A stretch of DNA of 64,000 nucleotides from NCBI GenBank assembly GCA_949297145.1, contig CASFQO010000013.1, positions 18,768 through 82,767 of the forward strand, written 5' to 3'. Each line of letters starts with the position of its first letter. Positions within the stretch are counted from its first letter, which is position 1. Below, one piece after another: positions 28,140 to 59,869 of this stretch. This stretch comes from an uncultured Alphaproteobacteria bacterium. GTDB taxonomy: Bacteria; Pseudomonadota; Alphaproteobacteria; RF32; CAG-239. Below the pieces are notes generated by a model. The model was not told the DNA's origin. It saw only the letters and a program-made list of their open reading frames with translations, and made no database searches. Made by a program: the position numbers and the translations under genes.

Positions 28140-31086
28140 TTTACTATTTCTTTTGCTTGGCGCCTTCTTTTCTCCGTGGGGCAAAGCCGAAGATTTAACC
28201 GATTATAGTGAAGATCCTCTTATCTTGGAACCTATTATTCAGGGTTTCAATTTAGATGATTATGCCTATGTTTATGAAAAAAACACTAAGCAATATATTT
28301 CTTTGCCGCAAATTGCATCTTATTTGGGAATTAAGTATTCTCTTTCTGATAATGTCATTCGCGGCTATTGGGTCAATACACCGGATAAACCGTTTGTTAT
28401 CAATCTCAATAGCTATACCGTTGAACAAGATGGCGAAGTTACACCTTTTGCTACTAATGAAGTGATTGTGGTTGATAACACTATCTTTTTTGCAGCTGAT
28501 TTCTATATCCGTGTGCTCCATATCAATATTAAGATTGACTCACTTAATATGCAGATGTTGATTACGGCACAAGATGAATTTCCGACTACTCTTAAGCGTA
28601 AAGCGGAGAAAAAAAGAGGCAAAAATAATTTTTCATTCAGAAAAGACAGTTTCAAAAATTATGAATTCGATAACCGTTGGTTTGGCGCTCCGGTGGTTGA
28701 TTTAACCCTCGGAAAAGGCTGGAGCCGCTATGATAGCGTTGATAAGAGTTTTAACAGTGATTCTTATTCTTTGAATGTGGCTATGCTCGCGGCCGGATTG
28801 GATGTTAATGCGTATATTTTTGGAGATTCATATAATGACAGGCAGCCGAGAATCCGCTTAACCGGCAGCAGAACTTTTTTGGATGAACCGGGAAATGCGC
28901 TTAACCTGAAAACATTAAAAGTTGGTGATATCAGCGGGCTTAATTCTTCTTATTTTGCAGATGCATCTTATGGACGAGGTGTTGCGGTCAGCAGCTTTAA
29001 AAACTTAGTTATGTCCGCGAATAAAACAATTGATATTACCGGTCCGCTTTTAGATGGGTGGCAGGTTGAGCTCTATTGGAACGAACAATTGGTTGGATAT
29101 CGTCAAAGCGGTGTGAACGGGCAATATAACTTCCCCGATATTCCGGTTTCGTATGGCTTAAATACGTTTAAACTCGTTTTTTATGGACCTTATGGTGAAA
29201 CACGGACTGAATATGAGCGCTATTATTCCGGTACAAGTCCGGTTAAAAAAGGTGAATTCGGATATACGGCTTCTGCTTATCAACCTTATAGATATCTCTT
29301 TGAAAATAATGAGCCGTTCACTTATAGCGGTGACGATACACCAGTGCTCGATTTTACCGGTTATTATGGTGCCACGGATCATTTGACACTTATGGGCGGT
29401 TTGACGCAAACGCCCGATGCTGAAACGGGAACGGAAACTCAACGTTTTGCTATGGCCGGTGCACAAGTTGCCGTTAAAGGTAGCTCTTTACAATACAACT
29501 TAGAGCAAAATTTGGATACGGATGATTTTGCCCATCACGCAGAATGGCAAGGCGACGTCTATATCGGGTCTATCTATGCCGGATATGATAAATTTAATAA
29601 TATTCACTCGCCGGTTTCTTTTTATGGTGATGAGTATTTAGATGAGCAATTTGAAGCTCGTTTATCCGGTATGTTACCATGGAGAGTGCCGTATTATTTG
29701 AGTTGGCGGCAGGGAACTCTTGAAAGCGATGAAACGTCTTTTAATAATGTTACGGCCAGACTTTCTAAACAGTTGATGAATAGCTTGAATTTGACTTTAG
29801 AAGATAGCTATTACGACTATAACAGCTCTCGCGGTGCTTATAATACCGTACGCTTCGGCGCTTATAAATGGTGGGGAGATTTTTCTTCTGAAACTTGGTT
29901 GACGTATGAAACCTCTCCAGAATCCCGCTTTACGGAATTTTCAACACGTCTTGATTGGCGAACCGGACGAAATACTTATCTTTCCGGAAAATATACTCGC
30001 AACTTAATTGAAGATATGGATTATCTCTCTTTTTCGGGCGGACAAATCTTTCCTTTCGGCGGATTGACGGCCACCCTTGAATTTGATCGAGATTTTAATA
30101 TCAGTTCCTATCTGACTTATAATATCAGCTTTGCTAAGGCGCCGAATTCTATGGATGTGATTACTTCGGCTAACTCAAAACTCAGTAATACCGGTACGAT
30201 GTATGTTCAGGCAACCGATGAGTCCGGTCAACCTTTGGAGGGTATTGGCCTTAACGCTAATGGCTTGGAAAAAGAAATTTATACGGATGAAAATGGTGTA
30301 GCGGTTTTGACCGATTTGCAAACTTATGAAAAAACGGTACTTAACGTTGATACGGAAACGCTATTGGATATTGCATTGCAACCGGTTTATGATGAGAAAA
30401 AGTTAGTTTTAAGACCGGGAACTATCCGAACTGTTTCTATTCCGTTTACGCATCGGGGTGCGGTTGAAGGTAAAATTGAAAACATTGATGATACGCGTAT
30501 GTTTGGATACCAAATTATTGCGCTTGATGCGGACAATAAAGAAATTGCTTCCACTTTTGCTGATATTGAGGGTTTCTTTATCTTGGATGCGGTTCCTTAT
30601 GGAACATATAAAATTGTTATCTCTAAAGATGGAAATCAACTGGCTGAATTGCAAGATGTTAAAGTTGATGATGTTTCTATCTATCTTCCTGATGAGATTA
30701 AACTTGATAAAAAAGCTCTTGATTTCTTTGCTGAAAAAGATAGTGCGGATGAACTTCAATTTGTAGAAGAACAACATGATCTCGGCTATAATAATGTTGA
30801 CTACAGAAACAGAGATTTACCTATAGATATTCCTCAAGCGGTTTCTGAGCCTCAACCGCATATGCCTAAAATTCAAATTGAAGAAATTGAAAAAGATATT
30901 TTTGTGCAGACTGAAGCTCCGGTCTTTCAATCTGTTGCTTCCGTACAATCTTTTGATAGATACACAACCGTGCAAGATATTGAAAAAGGTATTTTCGCGG
31001 TAGCAACTCAGAATAGTTCTGTTTCTTATATTCTGCATGACTTGGAATATAATGTTGCACTTCAAGATGTTTTGGAAAAAGAATAG
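28093..31086 (+). CDS. Large outer-membrane usher-like protein
   Basis: About 998 aa; it overlaps the chaperone gene by about 47 nt. After the signal peptide, the N-terminus LILEPIIQGFNLDDYAYVY...YISLPQIASYLGI resembles an usher N-terminal domain. The middle is long and Tyr/Gly/Asp-rich, as for a beta-barrel. Two CarboxypepD_reg-like beta-sandwich modules follow (MYVQATDESGQPLEG...; GAVEGKIEN...GFFILDAVPYGTYKIVI). Confidence 0.6.
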   Translation: MLKRRKKYCGRLYRYSLLFLLLGAFFSPWGKAEDLTDYSEDPLILEPIIQGFNLDDYAYVYEKNTKQYISLPQIASYLGIKYSLSDNVIRGYWVNTPDKPFVINLNSYTVEQDGEVTPFATNEVIVVDNTIFFAADFYIRVLHINIKIDSLNMQMLITAQDEFPTTLKRKAEKKRGKNNFSFRKDSFKNYEFDNRWFGAPVVDLTLGKGWSRYDSVDKSFNSDSYSLNVAMLAAGLDVNAYIFGDSYNDRQPRIRLTGSRTFLDEPGNALNLKTLKVGDISGLNSSYFADASYGRGVAVSSFKNLVMSANKTIDITGPLLDGWQVELYWNEQLVGYRQSGVNGQYNFPDIPVSYGLNTFKLVFYGPYGETRTEYERYYSGTSPVKKGEFGYTASAYQPYRYLFENNEPFTYSGDDTPVLDFTGYYGATDHLTLMGGLTQTPDAETGTETQRFAMAGAQVAVKGSSLQYNLEQNLDTDDFAHHAEWQGDVYIGSIYAGYDKFNNIHSPVSFYGDEYLDEQFEARLSGMLPWRVPYYLSWRQGTLESDETSFNNVTARLSKQLMNSLNLTLEDSYYDYNSSRGAYNTVRFGAYKWWGDFSSETWLTYETSPESRFTEFSTRLDWRTGRNTYLSGKYTRNLIEDMDYLSFSGGQIFPFGGLTATLEFDRDFNISSYLTYNISFAKAPNSMDVITSANSKLSNTGTMYVQATDESGQPLEGIGLNANGLEKEIYTDENGVAVLTDLQTYEKTVLNVDTETLLDIALQPVYDEKKLVLRPGTIRTVSIPFTHRGAVEGKIENIDDTRMFGYQIIALDADNKEIASTFADIEGFFILDAVPYGTYKIVISKDGNQLAELQDVKVDDVSIYLPDEIKLDKKALDFFAEKDSADELQFVEEQHDLGYNNVDYRNRDLPIDIPQAVSEPQPHMPKIQIEEIEKDIFVQTEAPVFQSVASVQSFDRYTTVQDIEKGIFAVATQNSSVSYILHDLEYNVALQDVLEKE

Positions 31087-44642: not shown

Positions 44643-45335
44643 CTAACTATTTTTAGAATCAAGATATTTCTTAAACAGGTCAGGCCGTTTAGCTTTTGTT
44701 GCGAGTTCTGCTTGTTCTCTTCGCCATTCTTCTATTTTTTGATGATGGCCTGATAGCAATATTTCCGGAACTTTCCGCCCCTTCCATTCTATCGGACGGG
44801 TGTATTGCGGATATTCCAATAAACAGCTTTCAAAGCTCTCATCTTCTATAGATGCTTCATTTCCTAACACGCCGGGCAATAATCTGATTATTGAATCTAA
44901 CATTATTTGCGCCGCTTGTTCGCCTCCGGTTAAAATGTAGTCGCCTATGCTTATCTCTTCCACATTATATTCTTCTATGATACGCTCGTCTATACCTTCA
45001 AAACGTCCGCATATTATCGTTATGTTCTCTTCTTTTGAAAGTTCATGACTTAACTCTTGCGTCAGCGGTCTGCCTTTTGGGCTCATATATATCATGCGGC
45101 CGCCTTGGTAATTGGCATCTATCGCTTTTCCCAATATATCCGCACGCATTATCATGCCGGCGCCTCCGCCACAAGGGGTATCATCGACCGATTTGTGTTT
45201 GTCTTCAGCATAATCGCGAATGTTTATCGCGTCTATTTGCCACTTCTTTTCTTCTAACGCTTTTCCGGTTAAGGAATATCCCAAAAATCCGGGGAACACC
45301 TCTGGAAACACCGTCAGAACTTTTACACTTAGCAT
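44643..45335 (-). CDS. trmD: tRNA (guanine37-N1)-methyltransferase
   Basis: VLTVFPEVFPGFL, GGGAGMIMRADI and ICGRFEGIDERI motifs, in conserved operon order. Confidence 0.96.
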   Translation of the reverse strand: MLSVKVLTVFPEVFPGFLGYSLTGKALEEKKWQIDAINIRDYAEDKHKSVDDTPCGGGAGMIMRADILGKAIDANYQGGRMIYMSPKGRPLTQELSHELSKEENITIICGRFEGIDERIIEEYNVEEISIGDYILTGGEQAAQIMLDSIIRLLPGVLGNEASIEDESFESCLLEYPQYTRPIEWKGRKVPEILLSGHHQKIEEWRREQAELATKAKRPDLFKKYLDSKNS

Positions 45336-45865
45336 TCTTTAGAATCCTCTTCGTCTTCTATGAACACCATACCGGTGGATGCAACAATAATATAGCCTTC
45401 TTCAAGATTTATTTCCGGTACATAACCTTTATTAAAAGGCAACATCTCCGAACGTCCGCTCTTTAACTTAATTTCTAAGATGTCACCGGCACCGAAATTA
45501 TAAAATCCCGTTACCTTGGCGACCTCTTTCTTTTCAGCATCAAGTACTTTTAAGCCGAGCAAATCAGTTTCATAGTACTCTTCTTCCGTCTTAATTTCCG
45601 GAAGAACGCCTCGGGGTGCATAAAGCTCCGTTCCTATCAGAGTTTCTGCAACCATACGATCTTCTACTCCGGAGATTTTTACGCGAAGCAAATCTTTTGA
45701 ATGGCCGGTAACCTTTAGGTTAAAATGCTTTGTTGAGGTTTTGTCTTCCAACATGCCATAGCTTGCGATGTCTTTGTCTACAACTGTGTAGCTTTTGACT
45801 TTGACTTCGCCTTTTATGCCATGAACGCCGACAATCTTGCCTAAACAAACGCGCTTTTCACTCAT
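45329..45865 (-). CDS. rimM: 16S rRNA processing protein RimM
   Basis: GKIVGVHGIKGEVKVKSYT, a PRC-barrel C-terminus, and a 7-nt overlap with trmD. Confidence 0.93.
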   Translation of the reverse strand: MSEKRVCLGKIVGVHGIKGEVKVKSYTVVDKDIASYGMLEDKTSTKHFNLKVTGHSKDLLRVKISGVEDRMVAETLIGTELYAPRGVLPEIKTEEEYYETDLLGLKVLDAEKKEVAKVTGFYNFGAGDILEIKLKSGRSEMLPFNKGYVPEINLEEGYIIVASTGMVFIEDEEDSKEC

Positions 45866-55887: not shown

Positions 55888-56709
55888 TTATTTTTCTTTT
55901 TTACCTTTCTTTGCGGCAATACGGCTTAACCATTCCGTCACGGTTAATTCTTGACTTTGCGGGGATAGACTTTCGTATGCTTTTTGTGCGTATGTTCTAT
56001 AATAGATTTTGTCTTGTGTTTGTTCTGTTTTTTGTTCAGCTTTGCAGACGGCGATTATGCTTTTATACAGGGCATTTTTGCTCTGAGATTTTATCTCTAA
56101 ATTCTTAAAACAAATTTCCGCTTTTGTTATTTCGGCGATGCGCTTTAATACGAAAGGTTTGGCTATTTCATCTGCCGTATTGAGGCAATAACATTGCTGT
56201 GCGTAGCTTTGACGGCGTACAACCAACTCTGTGCTGCTACCATTGGGTAGACGTGCTTGGTTGATATGGGGGTGTTTATATATATATTCAAACCACTCTG
56301 CCAATCTTTCTGAAGTGTACTTTTTATATTCCTTTCCCCTGTTTCCTACTTTATGAAATATTTTGGCACAATCTCTTGGTGTTAGCTCTCCGAATTGTTT
56401 TTCCGGCAAATTCTCCGGTTCTTCTTTTTCTGGACAATACTTACAATTTGCCCATTTTGCAAAGGCTTGGATAATTTCTTGACGATATTTTGAAGTGTTT
56501 AAGCAGTACATGATCTTGTTATTGACGCCCAATCTTTCTACAATAATCGGAAGCTTAATCCCTGATATCATACATATATTATCTTTCGGGCGTTCATACA
56601 GTTTTCTGAACAATCCATTCAACCGGTCTTGCTTTTTAAAACCTGACAGTTTTTTGCCATCCTCTGATTTGACATCATTCAATAAATGTTTGGTATCGCT
56701 TACAATCAA
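55888..56709 (-). CDS. Repeat-domain protein, downstream fragment (repeats 2 and 3)
   Basis: The 273-aa ORF is called from TTG 56709 and has no RBS. It contains two copies of a roughly 90-aa module that is also present in the upstream ORF. Confidence 0.55.
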   Translation of the reverse strand: MIVSDTKHLLNDVKSEDGKKLSGFKKQDRLNGLFRKLYERPKDNICMISGIKLPIIVERLGVNNKIMYCLNTSKYRQEIIQAFAKWANCKYCPEKEEPENLPEKQFGELTPRDCAKIFHKVGNRGKEYKKYTSERLAEWFEYIYKHPHINQARLPNGSSTELVVRRQSYAQQCYCLNTADEIAKPFVLKRIAEITKAEICFKNLEIKSQSKNALYKSIIAVCKAEQKTEQTQDKIYYRTYAQKAYESLSPQSQELTVTEWLSRIAAKKGKKEK

Positions 56710-57061
56710 CTCTCCTGTTTTTTTTCGCTTCCGGGCGCCCTAAACGGCATGTAATTTTCATTTGTTTGGCAAACGCTTCTAATATTTCTTCTTGAGGGGC
56801 CTCCGATGTATTTAGATAATAGGCGGAGGCTCTGCCTTCTTGTCTATGGTGCACGACAATCGGAACGACTTTTCCATCCGACAAAGTACATTTGTTCTTT
56901 TCTTTATTTTGATATAATTTCGCAAACAAAAAACGCAGATGACCACGTTTTTCGCTCTGCGTTAGTTTTTCTCCGTTTTCATTTCTGATGTTATCAAAAA
57001 ATTTAACGGCTTCGGATGCGTTTAATTCGCCTTCTTGTTTTATCTCAACGTTCTCTGTCAT
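56675..57061 (-). CDS. Repeat-domain protein, upstream fragment (repeat 1)
   Basis: 128-aa ORF with a good promoter and an AAAGG RBS. It ends 35 nt inside the next ORF, in another frame, just after an A8 tract. Confidence 0.55.
   Translation of the reverse strand: MTENVEIKQEGELNASEAVKFFDNIRNENGEKLTQSEKRGHLRFLFAKLYQNKEKNKCTLSDGKVVPIVVHHRQEGRASAYYLNTSEAPQEEILEAFAKQMKITCRLGRPEAKKNRRVDCKRYQTFIE
56718..56725 (-). repeat. A8 homopolymer (coding strand) at the junction of the two repeat-protein ORFs
   Basis: GAAGCGAAAAAAAACAGGAGAGTTGATTGTAAGC. Removing one A joins ...RPEAKK to TGELIVSDTKHLL... in a single frame. Confidence 0.9.
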
Positions 57062-57088: not shown

Positions 57089-57117
57089 AATATAGCATAT
57101 TTTATCTTATTAGGCAA
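57089..57117 (-). promoter_or_regulatory. Sigma-70-like promoter TTGCCT-17-TATATT for the repeat-protein gene
   Basis: The minus strand reads gtgTTGCCTaataagataaaatatgcTATATTggc. Confidence 0.5.
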
Positions 57118-57131
57118 CACGATTTTATGAC

Positions 57132-57467
57132 TTAAAACATAAAGCGCATCAATTGTATCCAGTAGGCATAAACAGCAATGGCTATGATTTTATACAACAC
57201 GGCCAAGCTCATCAATGTGCCGCTTAGCACGACGACCTCTATAATTATGGCTGCAATAACCGCCACACCCAACATTTCCAGCCAATAATACTTTTGCTTT
57301 ATCAATAACAATGAGGCGATGACAGCGGTTAAAGCAATGTACATATTTTGCATTGCAGCAAATGTCCGCGCAACCGGAGCTGTTACCGGGCTGAAATTTA
57401 TAACAAAAGATGCCATCATCACGATGGTTGCAATGATAAAAATAATAAAACTACTTCTTCTTGACAT
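57132..57467 (-). CDS. Small integral membrane protein (3-4 TM)
   Basis: 111-aa hydrophobic ORF overlapping the upstream methyltransferase gene by 17 nt. Confidence 0.6.
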   Translation of the reverse strand: MSRRSSFIIFIIATIVMMASFVINFSPVTAPVARTFAAMQNMYIALTAVIASLLLIKQKYYWLEMLGVAVIAAIIIEVVVLSGTLMSLAVLYKIIAIAVYAYWIQLMRFMF

Positions 57468-58200
57468 TTTTTTCTCCTTTTGGGGTTTTCTTGATACTTT
57501 TTGCCGATGATTTAGCTTTTACTTTCGTTTGATCTGAGGTTTTCGTCTTTTTAACCTCTGCTTTTTTAGATTTTACCGAAGTTTGTTTTGGTGTGGTCTT
57601 TTGCTTTGATACGCGCTTCTCGGCTTTGGGCTTTTTATATACAAAAATCTTTTCTGGAACGCCATATATTGATGACTCTATTTGTTTTGTCTCCTCAAGG
57701 TGGCCAAGCGGAAACATCTCCGAGATCACCACACAGCTCTCTTTGATATTGTCTGCCAAAATTTTGCCTAAAGGGTCTCCTGTTACTTTCAAGACATAGC
57801 ACATGATTAAATCCATATCTTTATAGTCTTGCTTCATGTAATCGCCTTTAACAAAGGTGATGTTCTTTAGGCCGGCAGCTTTTATCTTTCCCATTGTCAG
57901 AGGCACTATATCCCATTCATAACCGATAAATTCGTGTTCCGGAAATTCTTTTGCCAAAGGCAATAAAAGCGCACCGCTGCCGCAACCTAAGTCGGTGACT
58001 TTCATTTTGTGTTTGGCTTTTTTCAAAACACTTCTTGCCTCTTCTATCATATCTTCCTTGATTTTTCCGTATGATGATACAAAAGGTCCATACTTGCCGC
58101 AACCGCATTTGATGTATGAATATGTTTGATACAGCAAATATACGATGGCCGCAAAACCTATTAACAACGCAAATATTACAATTATTCCGTTACAACACAT
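57451..58200 (-). CDS. Membrane-anchored class I SAM-dependent methyltransferase with Lys-rich tail
   Basis: N-terminal TM, motif I VTDLGCGSGALLL, and a roughly 60-aa C-terminal Lys/Thr/Ser-rich tail. Confidence 0.75.
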   Translation of the reverse strand: MCCNGIIVIFALLIGFAAIVYLLYQTYSYIKCGCGKYGPFVSSYGKIKEDMIEEARSVLKKAKHKMKVTDLGCGSGALLLPLAKEFPEHEFIGYEWDIVPLTMGKIKAAGLKNITFVKGDYMKQDYKDMDLIMCYVLKVTGDPLGKILADNIKESCVVISEMFPLGHLEETKQIESSIYGVPEKIFVYKKPKAEKRVSKQKTTPKQTSVKSKKAEVKKTKTSDQTKVKAKSSAKSIKKTPKGEKNVKKK

Positions 58201-58305: not shown

Positions 58306-59025
58306 ATGCGGCAAAAATATAATCGTATTATCTTTCTGACCGGTGCCGGTATCTCGGCAGAATCGGGCTTGGCTACTTTTAGAAGTGAAGATGGTTTGTG
58401 GAACCATCATCGGGTGGAAGATGTTGCAACTATTGAAGCCTATTATCGTAATCCCGATTATGTCCATGATTTTTATAACAATATGAAGCCTGAACTATGG
58501 AATGCCAAACCTAACGCCGGGCATCTGGCCATTACACGTTTGCAACAAGAATATCCGGCGGAAGTGAATATCGTGACACAAAATATTGATACGCTTCATG
58601 AAAAAGCTAAAAGCAAAAATGTTTTTCATATTCATGGGCAGATTAACCAAGCTGTTTGTATGAATTGCGGTCATATTTTAGAAACTTGGGGCGACGTTAC
58701 TTCGGAAACTTGTTGCGATAACTGTCATGTGATGGGGATGATGAAACCTAACATCGTCTTTTTTGGAGAAAATCTCCTTTATATGGACAAGGTTGAGACT
58801 TTGCTTAAAACCTCTGATTTGTTTGTTTCGGTCGGGACGTCCGGTGTGGTTTATCCGGCGGCCGGTTTTGTACAAACGGCTAAGTATTATGGGGCAGATA
58901 CGATTGAATTTAATTTGGAGCCGACTTCAAATAATTTCTTTTTTGATAAACATGTGATGGGAAAAGCCGGCGATACGTTGCCTAAATTTGTTGATGAACT
59001 TTTAGCCGCCCTTAAGGGCAATTAA
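58306..59025 (+). CDS. cobB: NAD-dependent protein deacylase (Sir2/CobB family), copy 1
   Basis: IIFLTGAGISAESGLATFRSEDGLW, VTQNIDTLHEKA, HIHGQ, and Zn ribbon CMNCG...CDNC. Start moved to ATG 58306. Confidence 0.9.
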   Translation: MRQKYNRIIFLTGAGISAESGLATFRSEDGLWNHHRVEDVATIEAYYRNPDYVHDFYNNMKPELWNAKPNAGHLAITRLQQEYPAEVNIVTQNIDTLHEKAKSKNVFHIHGQINQAVCMNCGHILETWGDVTSETCCDNCHVMGMMKPNIVFFGENLLYMDKVETLLKTSDLFVSVGTSGVVYPAAGFVQTAKYYGADTIEFNLEPTSNNFFFDKHVMGKAGDTLPKFVDELLAALKGN

Positions 59026-59869
59026 TCTTTAGCAGATTTTTATAAAACGGAACTGTGAAAACATTTTTATCACCAAGCATTTGCAATTTTTCACAGGCAT
59101 TTGCTTGATAGAATTTTTGTGGATTTTGCGGAGATATTCTTTTTCCCATTTTTTCTCTTATAATAACATTTCCGTCTTCATAGCTTGCTTGATAATATTT
59201 TTTACTGGCGCCGTTTCGCTCCAACACATCATCTTTGAGCGCTGCAAATTTTGCTCCCGAAAACAACATTGCCAACCAAAAATCCCAATCCTCACTGGTT
59301 TTTAATTTTTCATCATAATGTATTTGGTGTTGCTTTGCAAAAGCACTTCTATACATCACGTTAGCATTTCCGAAATTATTATATTGGATTAGGCCCATGG
59401 CTATATTGTCATGATTTTCCGGTATGCGCGGCAGACCTTTAATTTGTCCGGCAACCACTGAAATATCTTTATGTTTCTCCAGAAAATCTACTTGCTTTGC
59501 CATTCTTTCAGGTTCGCTTTTATCATCATCATCCATAATCATAATATACTCACCACGTGCCAAATTTGCCGCTTTGTTACGTGAATAAGCTATGCCGCGA
59601 TTTATGTCATTTTTATAATAGCGAATGCGTCTGTCTTGATAATTTTTAACAACCTGCTCCGTCTTATCTGTTGAGCCGTCATTGATAATTATCAGTTCAA
59701 AATTTTTATACGTTTGCCCCAAAATACTCTCTATTGCTTGCGGCAAAATCGTTTCACGTTGGTACGTTAACATGACAACGGATACCTTTGGCTTTGCTTG
59801 CCAAAGATATCCGCCATATATTCCGATTGCCAGCACAACACCGGCTATGAGAACTCTTTTGATATTCAT
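59012..59869 (-). CDS. Family-2 glycosyltransferase with N-terminal TM anchor
   Basis: KVSVVMLTYQRETILPQAIESILGQTYKNFELIIINDGSTD and IMDDDD motifs. Confidence 0.88.
   Translation of the reverse strand: MNIKRVLIAGVVLAIGIYGGYLWQAKPKVSVVMLTYQRETILPQAIESILGQTYKNFELIIINDGSTDKTEQVVKNYQDRRIRYYKNDINRGIAYSRNKAANLARGEYIMIMDDDDKSEPERMAKQVDFLEKHKDISVVAGQIKGLPRIPENHDNIAMGLIQYNNFGNANVMYRSAFAKQHQIHYDEKLKTSEDWDFWLAMLFSGAKFAALKDDVLERNGASKKYYQASYEDGNVIIREKMGKRISPQNPQKFYQANACEKLQMLGDKNVFTVPFYKNLLKINCP

Follow-up and report, generated by a model that had tools for sequence, protein, structure and literature searches.

Runs of A or T promote transcriptional slippage at a frequency that is exponential in run length, and genome-wide data indicate that single insertions dominate at such runs, with homopolymer deletions being rare (PMC5574713). 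In tssM1 of Citrobacter rodentium, for example, an A11 run restores the gene at about 20% (PMC4256274). Other systems invite comparison as well: the poly(A) frameshift alleles of Buchnera and Blochmannia, the contingency loci of Haemophilus, Neisseria, Campylobacter and Helicobacter, and the +1 shift of prfB (RF2). Here we describe an A8 tract that splits an orphan gene in an uncultured gut alphaproteobacterium. Is the split a switch, a recoding site, a broken gene or a sequencing error? These were the four options of the original prediction, and it is the third, a pseudogene or null allele, that fits best; sequencing error is unlikely, programmed recoding is unsupported, and phase variation is left with a small share of the probability.

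The gene lies on the minus strand of the window (the whole 64,000-nucleotide stretch of DNA that was analysed), which belongs to contig 13 of an 87% complete MAG of 1.41 Mb in 16 contigs. Its features are as follows.

55888 to 57061, minus strand: the whole frameshifted gene, encoding an orphan three-repeat protein of 390 aa when intact (intact orthologs, 387-393 aa)
56675 to 57061, minus strand: upstream ORF of 128 aa with an ATG start, made up of repeat 1 and a 14-aa out-of-frame tail, NRRVDCKRYQTFIE
55888 to 56709, minus strand: downstream ORF of 273 aa as called from TTG, made up of repeats 2 and 3 and a helical tail
56718 to 56725, minus strand: A8 tract (T8 on the plus strand), +1 relative to the A7-CA of a sister strain and the majority A6-GCC
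56726 to 57037, minus strand: repeat 1, residues 9-112 of the intact protein (hhalign, AlphaFold model)
56398 to 56718, minus strand: repeat 2, residues 115-221 (hhalign; single-domain model with pLDDT 85.6 and pTM 0.77)
56086 to 56397, minus strand: repeat 3, residues 222-325, the most diverged copy (hhalign)
55891 to 56085, minus strand: C-terminal helical tail, residues 326-390, with no kinship to the repeats (hhalign, AlphaFold model)
57089 to 57117, minus strand: promoter-like TTGCCT-17-TATATT with TG, in the 70-nt upstream spacer, a match to consensus alone

The original observation is borne out in full. The two overlapping minus-strand ORFs that were originally proposed are both present, and removing one A from the A8 run joins their frames into the single 390-aa protein that was anticipated. 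An extension of the downstream frame upstream of its TTG had also been foreseen, and this frame is indeed open back to 56739, where it reads GARKRKKTGELIVSD (...KKTGELIVSD). The break falls in an inter-domain linker, and the upstream ORF contains the whole of repeat 1. Both facts suit a functional gene fission, in which a one-domain N-terminal and a two-domain C-terminal product would both be made and would work jointly or separately, as does the existence of a natural 268-aa relative of about two repeats (L027 216-1022, from a JGI metagenome). We nevertheless regard fission as highly improbable: the AGGAG located 2 nt before the downstream TTG consists of conserved Gly-Glu codons that are found in intact orthologs too, the same split occurs in no other genome, and the 268-aa relative, whether a natural two-repeat form or a remnant, looks like a remnant, starting inside repeat 2 with an unrelated ORF upstream. 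The 268-aa representatives were also considered as further split genomes and were set aside, one (L026) being a contig-edge fragment and the other (L027) a different truncated relative.

The homology of the three copies was assessed with hhalign: a segment of about 105 aa was taken for each copy from a 23-ortholog alignment, and the segments were compared profile to profile. Repeats 1 and 2 match with a probability of 99.9% (E 5e-31), repeats 1 and 3 with 98.5% (E 2e-15), and repeats 2 and 3 with 97.9% (E 6e-13); as a control, repeat 1 gave no hhalign match to the 65-residue C-terminal tail. The proposed three-copy module is thus homologous far beyond chance. For the whole protein, an AlphaFold2 model built with 11 homologs (mean pLDDT 84.6, pTM 0.54) depicts three alpha/beta domains and a helical tail, and repeat 2 modelled alone reaches the values listed above. 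Foldseek searches of the PDB and BFVD with the whole model and with a single repeat returned no match at E<0.1. Several matches below this threshold are winged-helix domains, a likeness that we dismiss as noise at a TM of about 0.25. That the module was not recognized originally is borne out at family level, there being no significant match in Pfam, NCBIfam, PHROGs or PDB sequences. PADLOC models gave weak matches, to Csm3 (best E 5e-4, in 6 of 11 family members, P0002-P0012, spanning repeats 1-2) and to HamC/DUF3223 (E 0.007); kinship to Csm3/RAMP or DUF3223 proteins was rejected, as these matches have no support from Foldseek or Pfam. As a confident prediction with no structural neighbor, the repeated domain qualifies as a candidate for a new fold. 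Hydrophilic and basic, with a pI of about 9.2 (9.1-9.4 for most of the orthologs) and 9-13 Cys, the protein has no signal peptide or transmembrane segment that is visible by eye in its sequence; the intact form is predicted to be a basic cytoplasmic protein. Its charge suggests, as a tentative guess, a nucleic-acid- or protein-binding scaffold.

How widely is the gene distributed, and is it split anywhere else? Of the 24 other species in the genus, 14 have it, in every case as one uninterrupted frame of 387-393 aa, and it is absent from all 16 other genera searched. The single ancestral ORF of about 390 aa that had been postulated can therefore be seen intact, in these 14 congeneric species as well as in sister strains, and the ortholog comparison finds no split among them. 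A family-profile scan of 1.84 billion representative proteins recovered 9 representatives, and a word-indexed search of 5.8 billion clusters recovered 11 clusters, all of 387-390 aa except for one fragment; a single-repeat profile search recovered no stand-alone single-domain relatives. By these searches, the protein appears to be confined to a single genus of uncultured gut Alphaproteobacteria. Among the closer species, its gene is located between a pair encoding a methyltransferase (membrane) and a small membrane protein on one side and asnS on the other, and in a distant species it has other neighbors; because of these neighborhoods, we take the gene to be chromosomal, vertically inherited and monocistronic-looking. 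Two nearby genes fall into protein clusters of two lengths, a methyltransferase at 57451-58200 (249 or 199 aa) and a glycosyltransferase at 59012-59869 (285 or 253 aa), with identical DNA in the compared strains. The shorter forms (199 and 253 aa) were rejected as truncations, since identical DNA makes them start choices of the gene caller.

Between species, dN/dS is 0.06-0.13 (for pairs with unsaturated dS), from which we conclude that purifying selection on the intact gene is strong. Both arms of the window allele, compared with G009, have a dN/dS of 0.06-0.07, which argues that there has been no old decay.

At the site of the tract, a Lys-Lys pair is conserved and every ortholog is in frame, with a tract length that varies by substitution from A3 to A8. 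The closest species reads GCG AAA AAA GCC GGA GAG (A6), two species read GCA AAA AAA ATA (A8, in frame), two read GCC AAA AAA ATA (A7), and more distant species have A3-A6. Within the species, tract states were read from the assembled contigs of public runs, in which minority A7 or A9 cells are not visible. The runs with the sequence are labelled as gut, chicken gut, rat and bird metagenomes, and no RNA run contains the sampled strain. Words containing the A8 state occur in two runs only, X1 (depth 30) and X2 (depth 8), whose independently built contigs match the window exactly across the tract. These are two samples of one study that carry nearly the same strain and are not fully independent; X2 differs from the window at 4 sites in another 20 kb, which marks it as a sample in its own right, from a strain that is almost identical. 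In one X2 contig, 31696 is joined to 44297, omitting 12.6 kb; the junction holds 9 unmatched letters, and the shorter side is only 20 nt long. This contig is probably spurious or foreign.

The polarity of the change is given by strain X4, which has one A fewer and an otherwise unchanged tract, GCG AAA AAA ACA, encoding KKT. Over 13,173 nt, its contig (L031, 80.5 kb) and the window share 99.85% identity, with the A7/A8 difference as the sole indel; the window allele is therefore a +1 insertion into an A7 tract. Eight other strains (X3, X5, X6, X7, X8, X9, X13 and X16) have A6-GCC, in frame. Elsewhere in the window, X4 has one additional T behind 47984, another strain-level difference in homopolymer length, near the ffh leader.

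Could the A8 be a homopolymer error of sequencing or assembly, the real DNA being A7? The source is a MAG, and contigs rather than reads were inspected, which leaves room for this explanation. We scanned the genome strand-wise for A/T runs of at least 7 and G/C runs of at least 6, calling a frame break when the arms were at least 100 codons. Frame-break signatures were found at 17 of 2990 homopolymer sites (0.57%) and at 131 of 28092 random control sites (0.47%), and genome-wide homopolymer error was discarded for want of an excess. Most of the 17 matches are SD-plus-start or stop contexts of adjacent genes, and the sole other A8 case (C2:87064) is the end of a trmFO-like gene. With no such excess and with A8 in separately assembled contigs of two samples (30x and 8x), an assembly error is unlikely. 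Split products are also recorded from NCBI, ENA and Logan assemblies, and the A8 goes together with SNPs at gene nt 258-383 that are specific to the strain. Taken together, these observations make an error extremely unlikely.

Neither mutS nor mutL was found in this MAG (G000), which likewise lacks the 18 kb and 10 kb that surround these genes in the closest relative. Loss of mismatch repair was rejected as a cause of the insertion: MutS and MutL are present in the genus, and the gap reflects the incompleteness of the assembly (the missing 13%).

In our judgment, the window probably contains a null or hypomorphic allele that arose recently, at the level of the strain, through replication slippage. 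The ORF is intact in the orthologs and close strains and broken in one lineage, and the break is a one-unit change in a simple repeat (A7 to A8) that is present, at the level of contigs, in the real DNA of two samples. Slippage would have lengthened the A7 tract, which codes for Lys-Lys-Thr (GCG AAA AAA ACA), by one A, shifting the frame after residue 114. The upstream ORF would then yield repeat 1 with a 14-residue junk tail, and repeats 2 and 3 would at best be produced at a low level, either from a TTG or ATT start in a poor position or by rare slippage in the mRNA. Loss of function would be expected from truncation after domain 1, and the event would be recent because neither arm shows further decay. 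Arms with no extra stops or indels also fit selection on two products or on a slippage-rescued product, which is a point against the null allele.

The window allele is not the only disrupted one. In the 90%-identity cluster of the protein, there are 23 distinct sequences from roughly 35 contigs, other truncated forms among them. A C4-to-C3 deletion at gene nt 1098, leaving 371 aa, is found mid-contig in L034, L035 and L036, contigs that reach 113 kb and come from two or more runs, and is a well-supported frameshift allele. An (AT)5-to-(AT)6 insertion at gene nt 774, leaving 299 aa (L033), is 159 nt from a scaffold end, and we are less sure of it. A second A8 contig with a differing 5' end (L032) may be a strain-chimeric assembly. 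In a sister species, an ortholog (L037 1501-2358) has a 58-nt out-of-frame deletion followed by a divergent 3' part, and this could be a fourth allele that disrupts the gene, or else a chimeric join in the scaffold. In the same strain alignments, 14 neighboring genes had no out-of-frame indels. Clusters of neighboring proteins are uniformly full length (14 of 14 for a 168-aa protein), and rpoH and a 111-aa membrane protein are each represented by one sequence in about 20 contigs. The apparent enrichment of frameshifts in the gene is ascertainment-biased, as the frameshift loci were chosen via their truncated products. The occurrence of at least two independent, well-supported frameshift alleles in a strongly constrained gene of one species is notable. 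Since at least two such alleles segregate in the species, the gene appears to be conditionally dispensable, or costly, in some hosts.

Substitutions are also concentrated here. Of the 21 differences between the window and X4 in 13 kb, 17 lie inside the gene, at 56129-56804, making this the densest SNP cluster between the two; further clusters are located at 44988-45377 (7 SNPs) and 29997-30105 (4 SNPs), with kilobases of identity between them. We read these clusters as ordinary, short homologous-recombination imports, going by their pattern in the sequence. A hypermutation or diversity-generating mechanism was rejected, given that similar clusters occur elsewhere and that the changes are not adenine-specific. 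The window-derived changes in the gene include 6 non-synonymous and 4 synonymous substitutions, one of them D128N at an otherwise invariant position, and the X4-derived changes include 3 of each kind, counts that are too few to show relaxed constraint.

Such within-species variation could be the signature of reversible phase variation, in which ON (A7) and OFF (A8) cells are generated by back-and-forth slippage and selection chooses between them. In its favor are the A7 and A8 alleles in strains that are 99.85% identical, the two or three simple-sequence frameshifts in one gene of one species, and the undecayed state of both arms. An A7 or A8 tract is short for a contingency tract, however, and a long one is not maintained: instead of the long, uninterrupted tract across strains that is expected of a contingency locus, we find A6-GCC in eight strains, A7 in one and A8 in one lineage, with A3-A8 in other species. 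Moreover, the other frameshift sites, C4 and (AT)5, are ordinary sequence, the strain is in the same state in both samples that contain it, and the genus has kept MutS and MutL. Phase variation is thus rather unlikely. A looser version, in which this would be a low-grade contingency gene under fluctuating gut selection, constrained between species and repeatedly switched off or swapped within a species, strikes us as decidedly unlikely as well; slippage at A7/8, C4/3 or (AT)5/6, or short recombination tracts, may in that case cause the loss or swap. If this version were true, gene loss would be advantageous under some condition, for example phage or host pressure.

Another question is whether the A8 allele is silent at all. 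Rescue at the level of expression, by RNA polymerase slippage (A8 to A7 or A10) or by a +1 shift of tRNA-Lys, would make the allele leaky rather than null. The exponential dependence of slippage on run length and the A11 precedent of tssM1, both cited above, speak for this possibility, as does the perfect re-pairing of tRNA-Lys in the +1 frame on A8 (AAA AAA A), as read from the sequence. To join the frames, either the ribosome must shift by +1 or the mRNA must lose one A or gain two, and a 1-nt deletion or 2-nt insertion in the mRNA is the disfavored direction; a -1 shift at the tract leads to TGA. The run is only 8 long and strain-specific, against the run of about 9 or more and the shifted state as the normal one that characterize transcriptional slippage. 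In the 0-frame, the site reads GCG AAA AAA AAC AGG AGA GUU, with no stop or obvious hungry codon, the codon next to the lysines being AAC. No Shine-Dalgarno stimulator is present in the sequence upstream of the tract, and the 141 nt around it fold no better than shuffles (z +1.05). Every ortholog is in one frame, so that neither a conserved shift site nor the two-frame arrangement exists in any of them. We judge expression-level rescue to be very unlikely and programmed recoding to be unsupported; some leakiness at the A8 tract is possible, with nothing to suggest selection for it. The frameshift is most likely routine natural variation and not a programmed switch.

What does a slipped allele of an orphan gene offer? 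For annotation, the two ORFs should be treated as one disrupted gene. The locus also brings to light a very narrow orphan family with a repeated domain in a gut lineage that is uncultured. Near-identical strains with intact and with independently broken alleles amount to a natural knock-out series, which, if linked to host or sample metadata, could hint at the role of the protein.

We can now return to the known systems. As with prfB, a +1 shift is needed to join the frames, but the locus lacks a conserved shift site, an in-frame stop and an SD 3 nt upstream, and its arrangement is not conserved in orthologs. As in tssM1 of C. rodentium, a poly-A run lies just before a premature stop with the remainder of the gene in another frame (PMC4256274); there, however, the run is A11, the gene is normally split in this way, an insertion brings about the rescue and both products are needed (PMC4256274), whereas here it is a strain-specific mutation of an A7 tract. 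As in the contingency loci of Haemophilus, Neisseria, Campylobacter and Helicobacter, near-identical ON and OFF strains differ by one repeat unit. Unlike those loci, this one has no long tract, most strains having an interrupted A6, its product is cytoplasmic rather than a surface or restriction-modification protein, and the allele differences are between strains. The poly(A) frameshift alleles of Buchnera and Blochmannia differ from the present case in that the tract here is just 8, the frameshift is in no relative, the organism is a free-living gut commensal of a genus with MutS and MutL, and the direction of rescue (-1 or +2 in the mRNA) is disfavored. Even so, the likeness is plain: in both, a single-base change in poly-A splits a conserved gene that is intact in relatives, and in both, polymerase slippage may allow for some leakiness.
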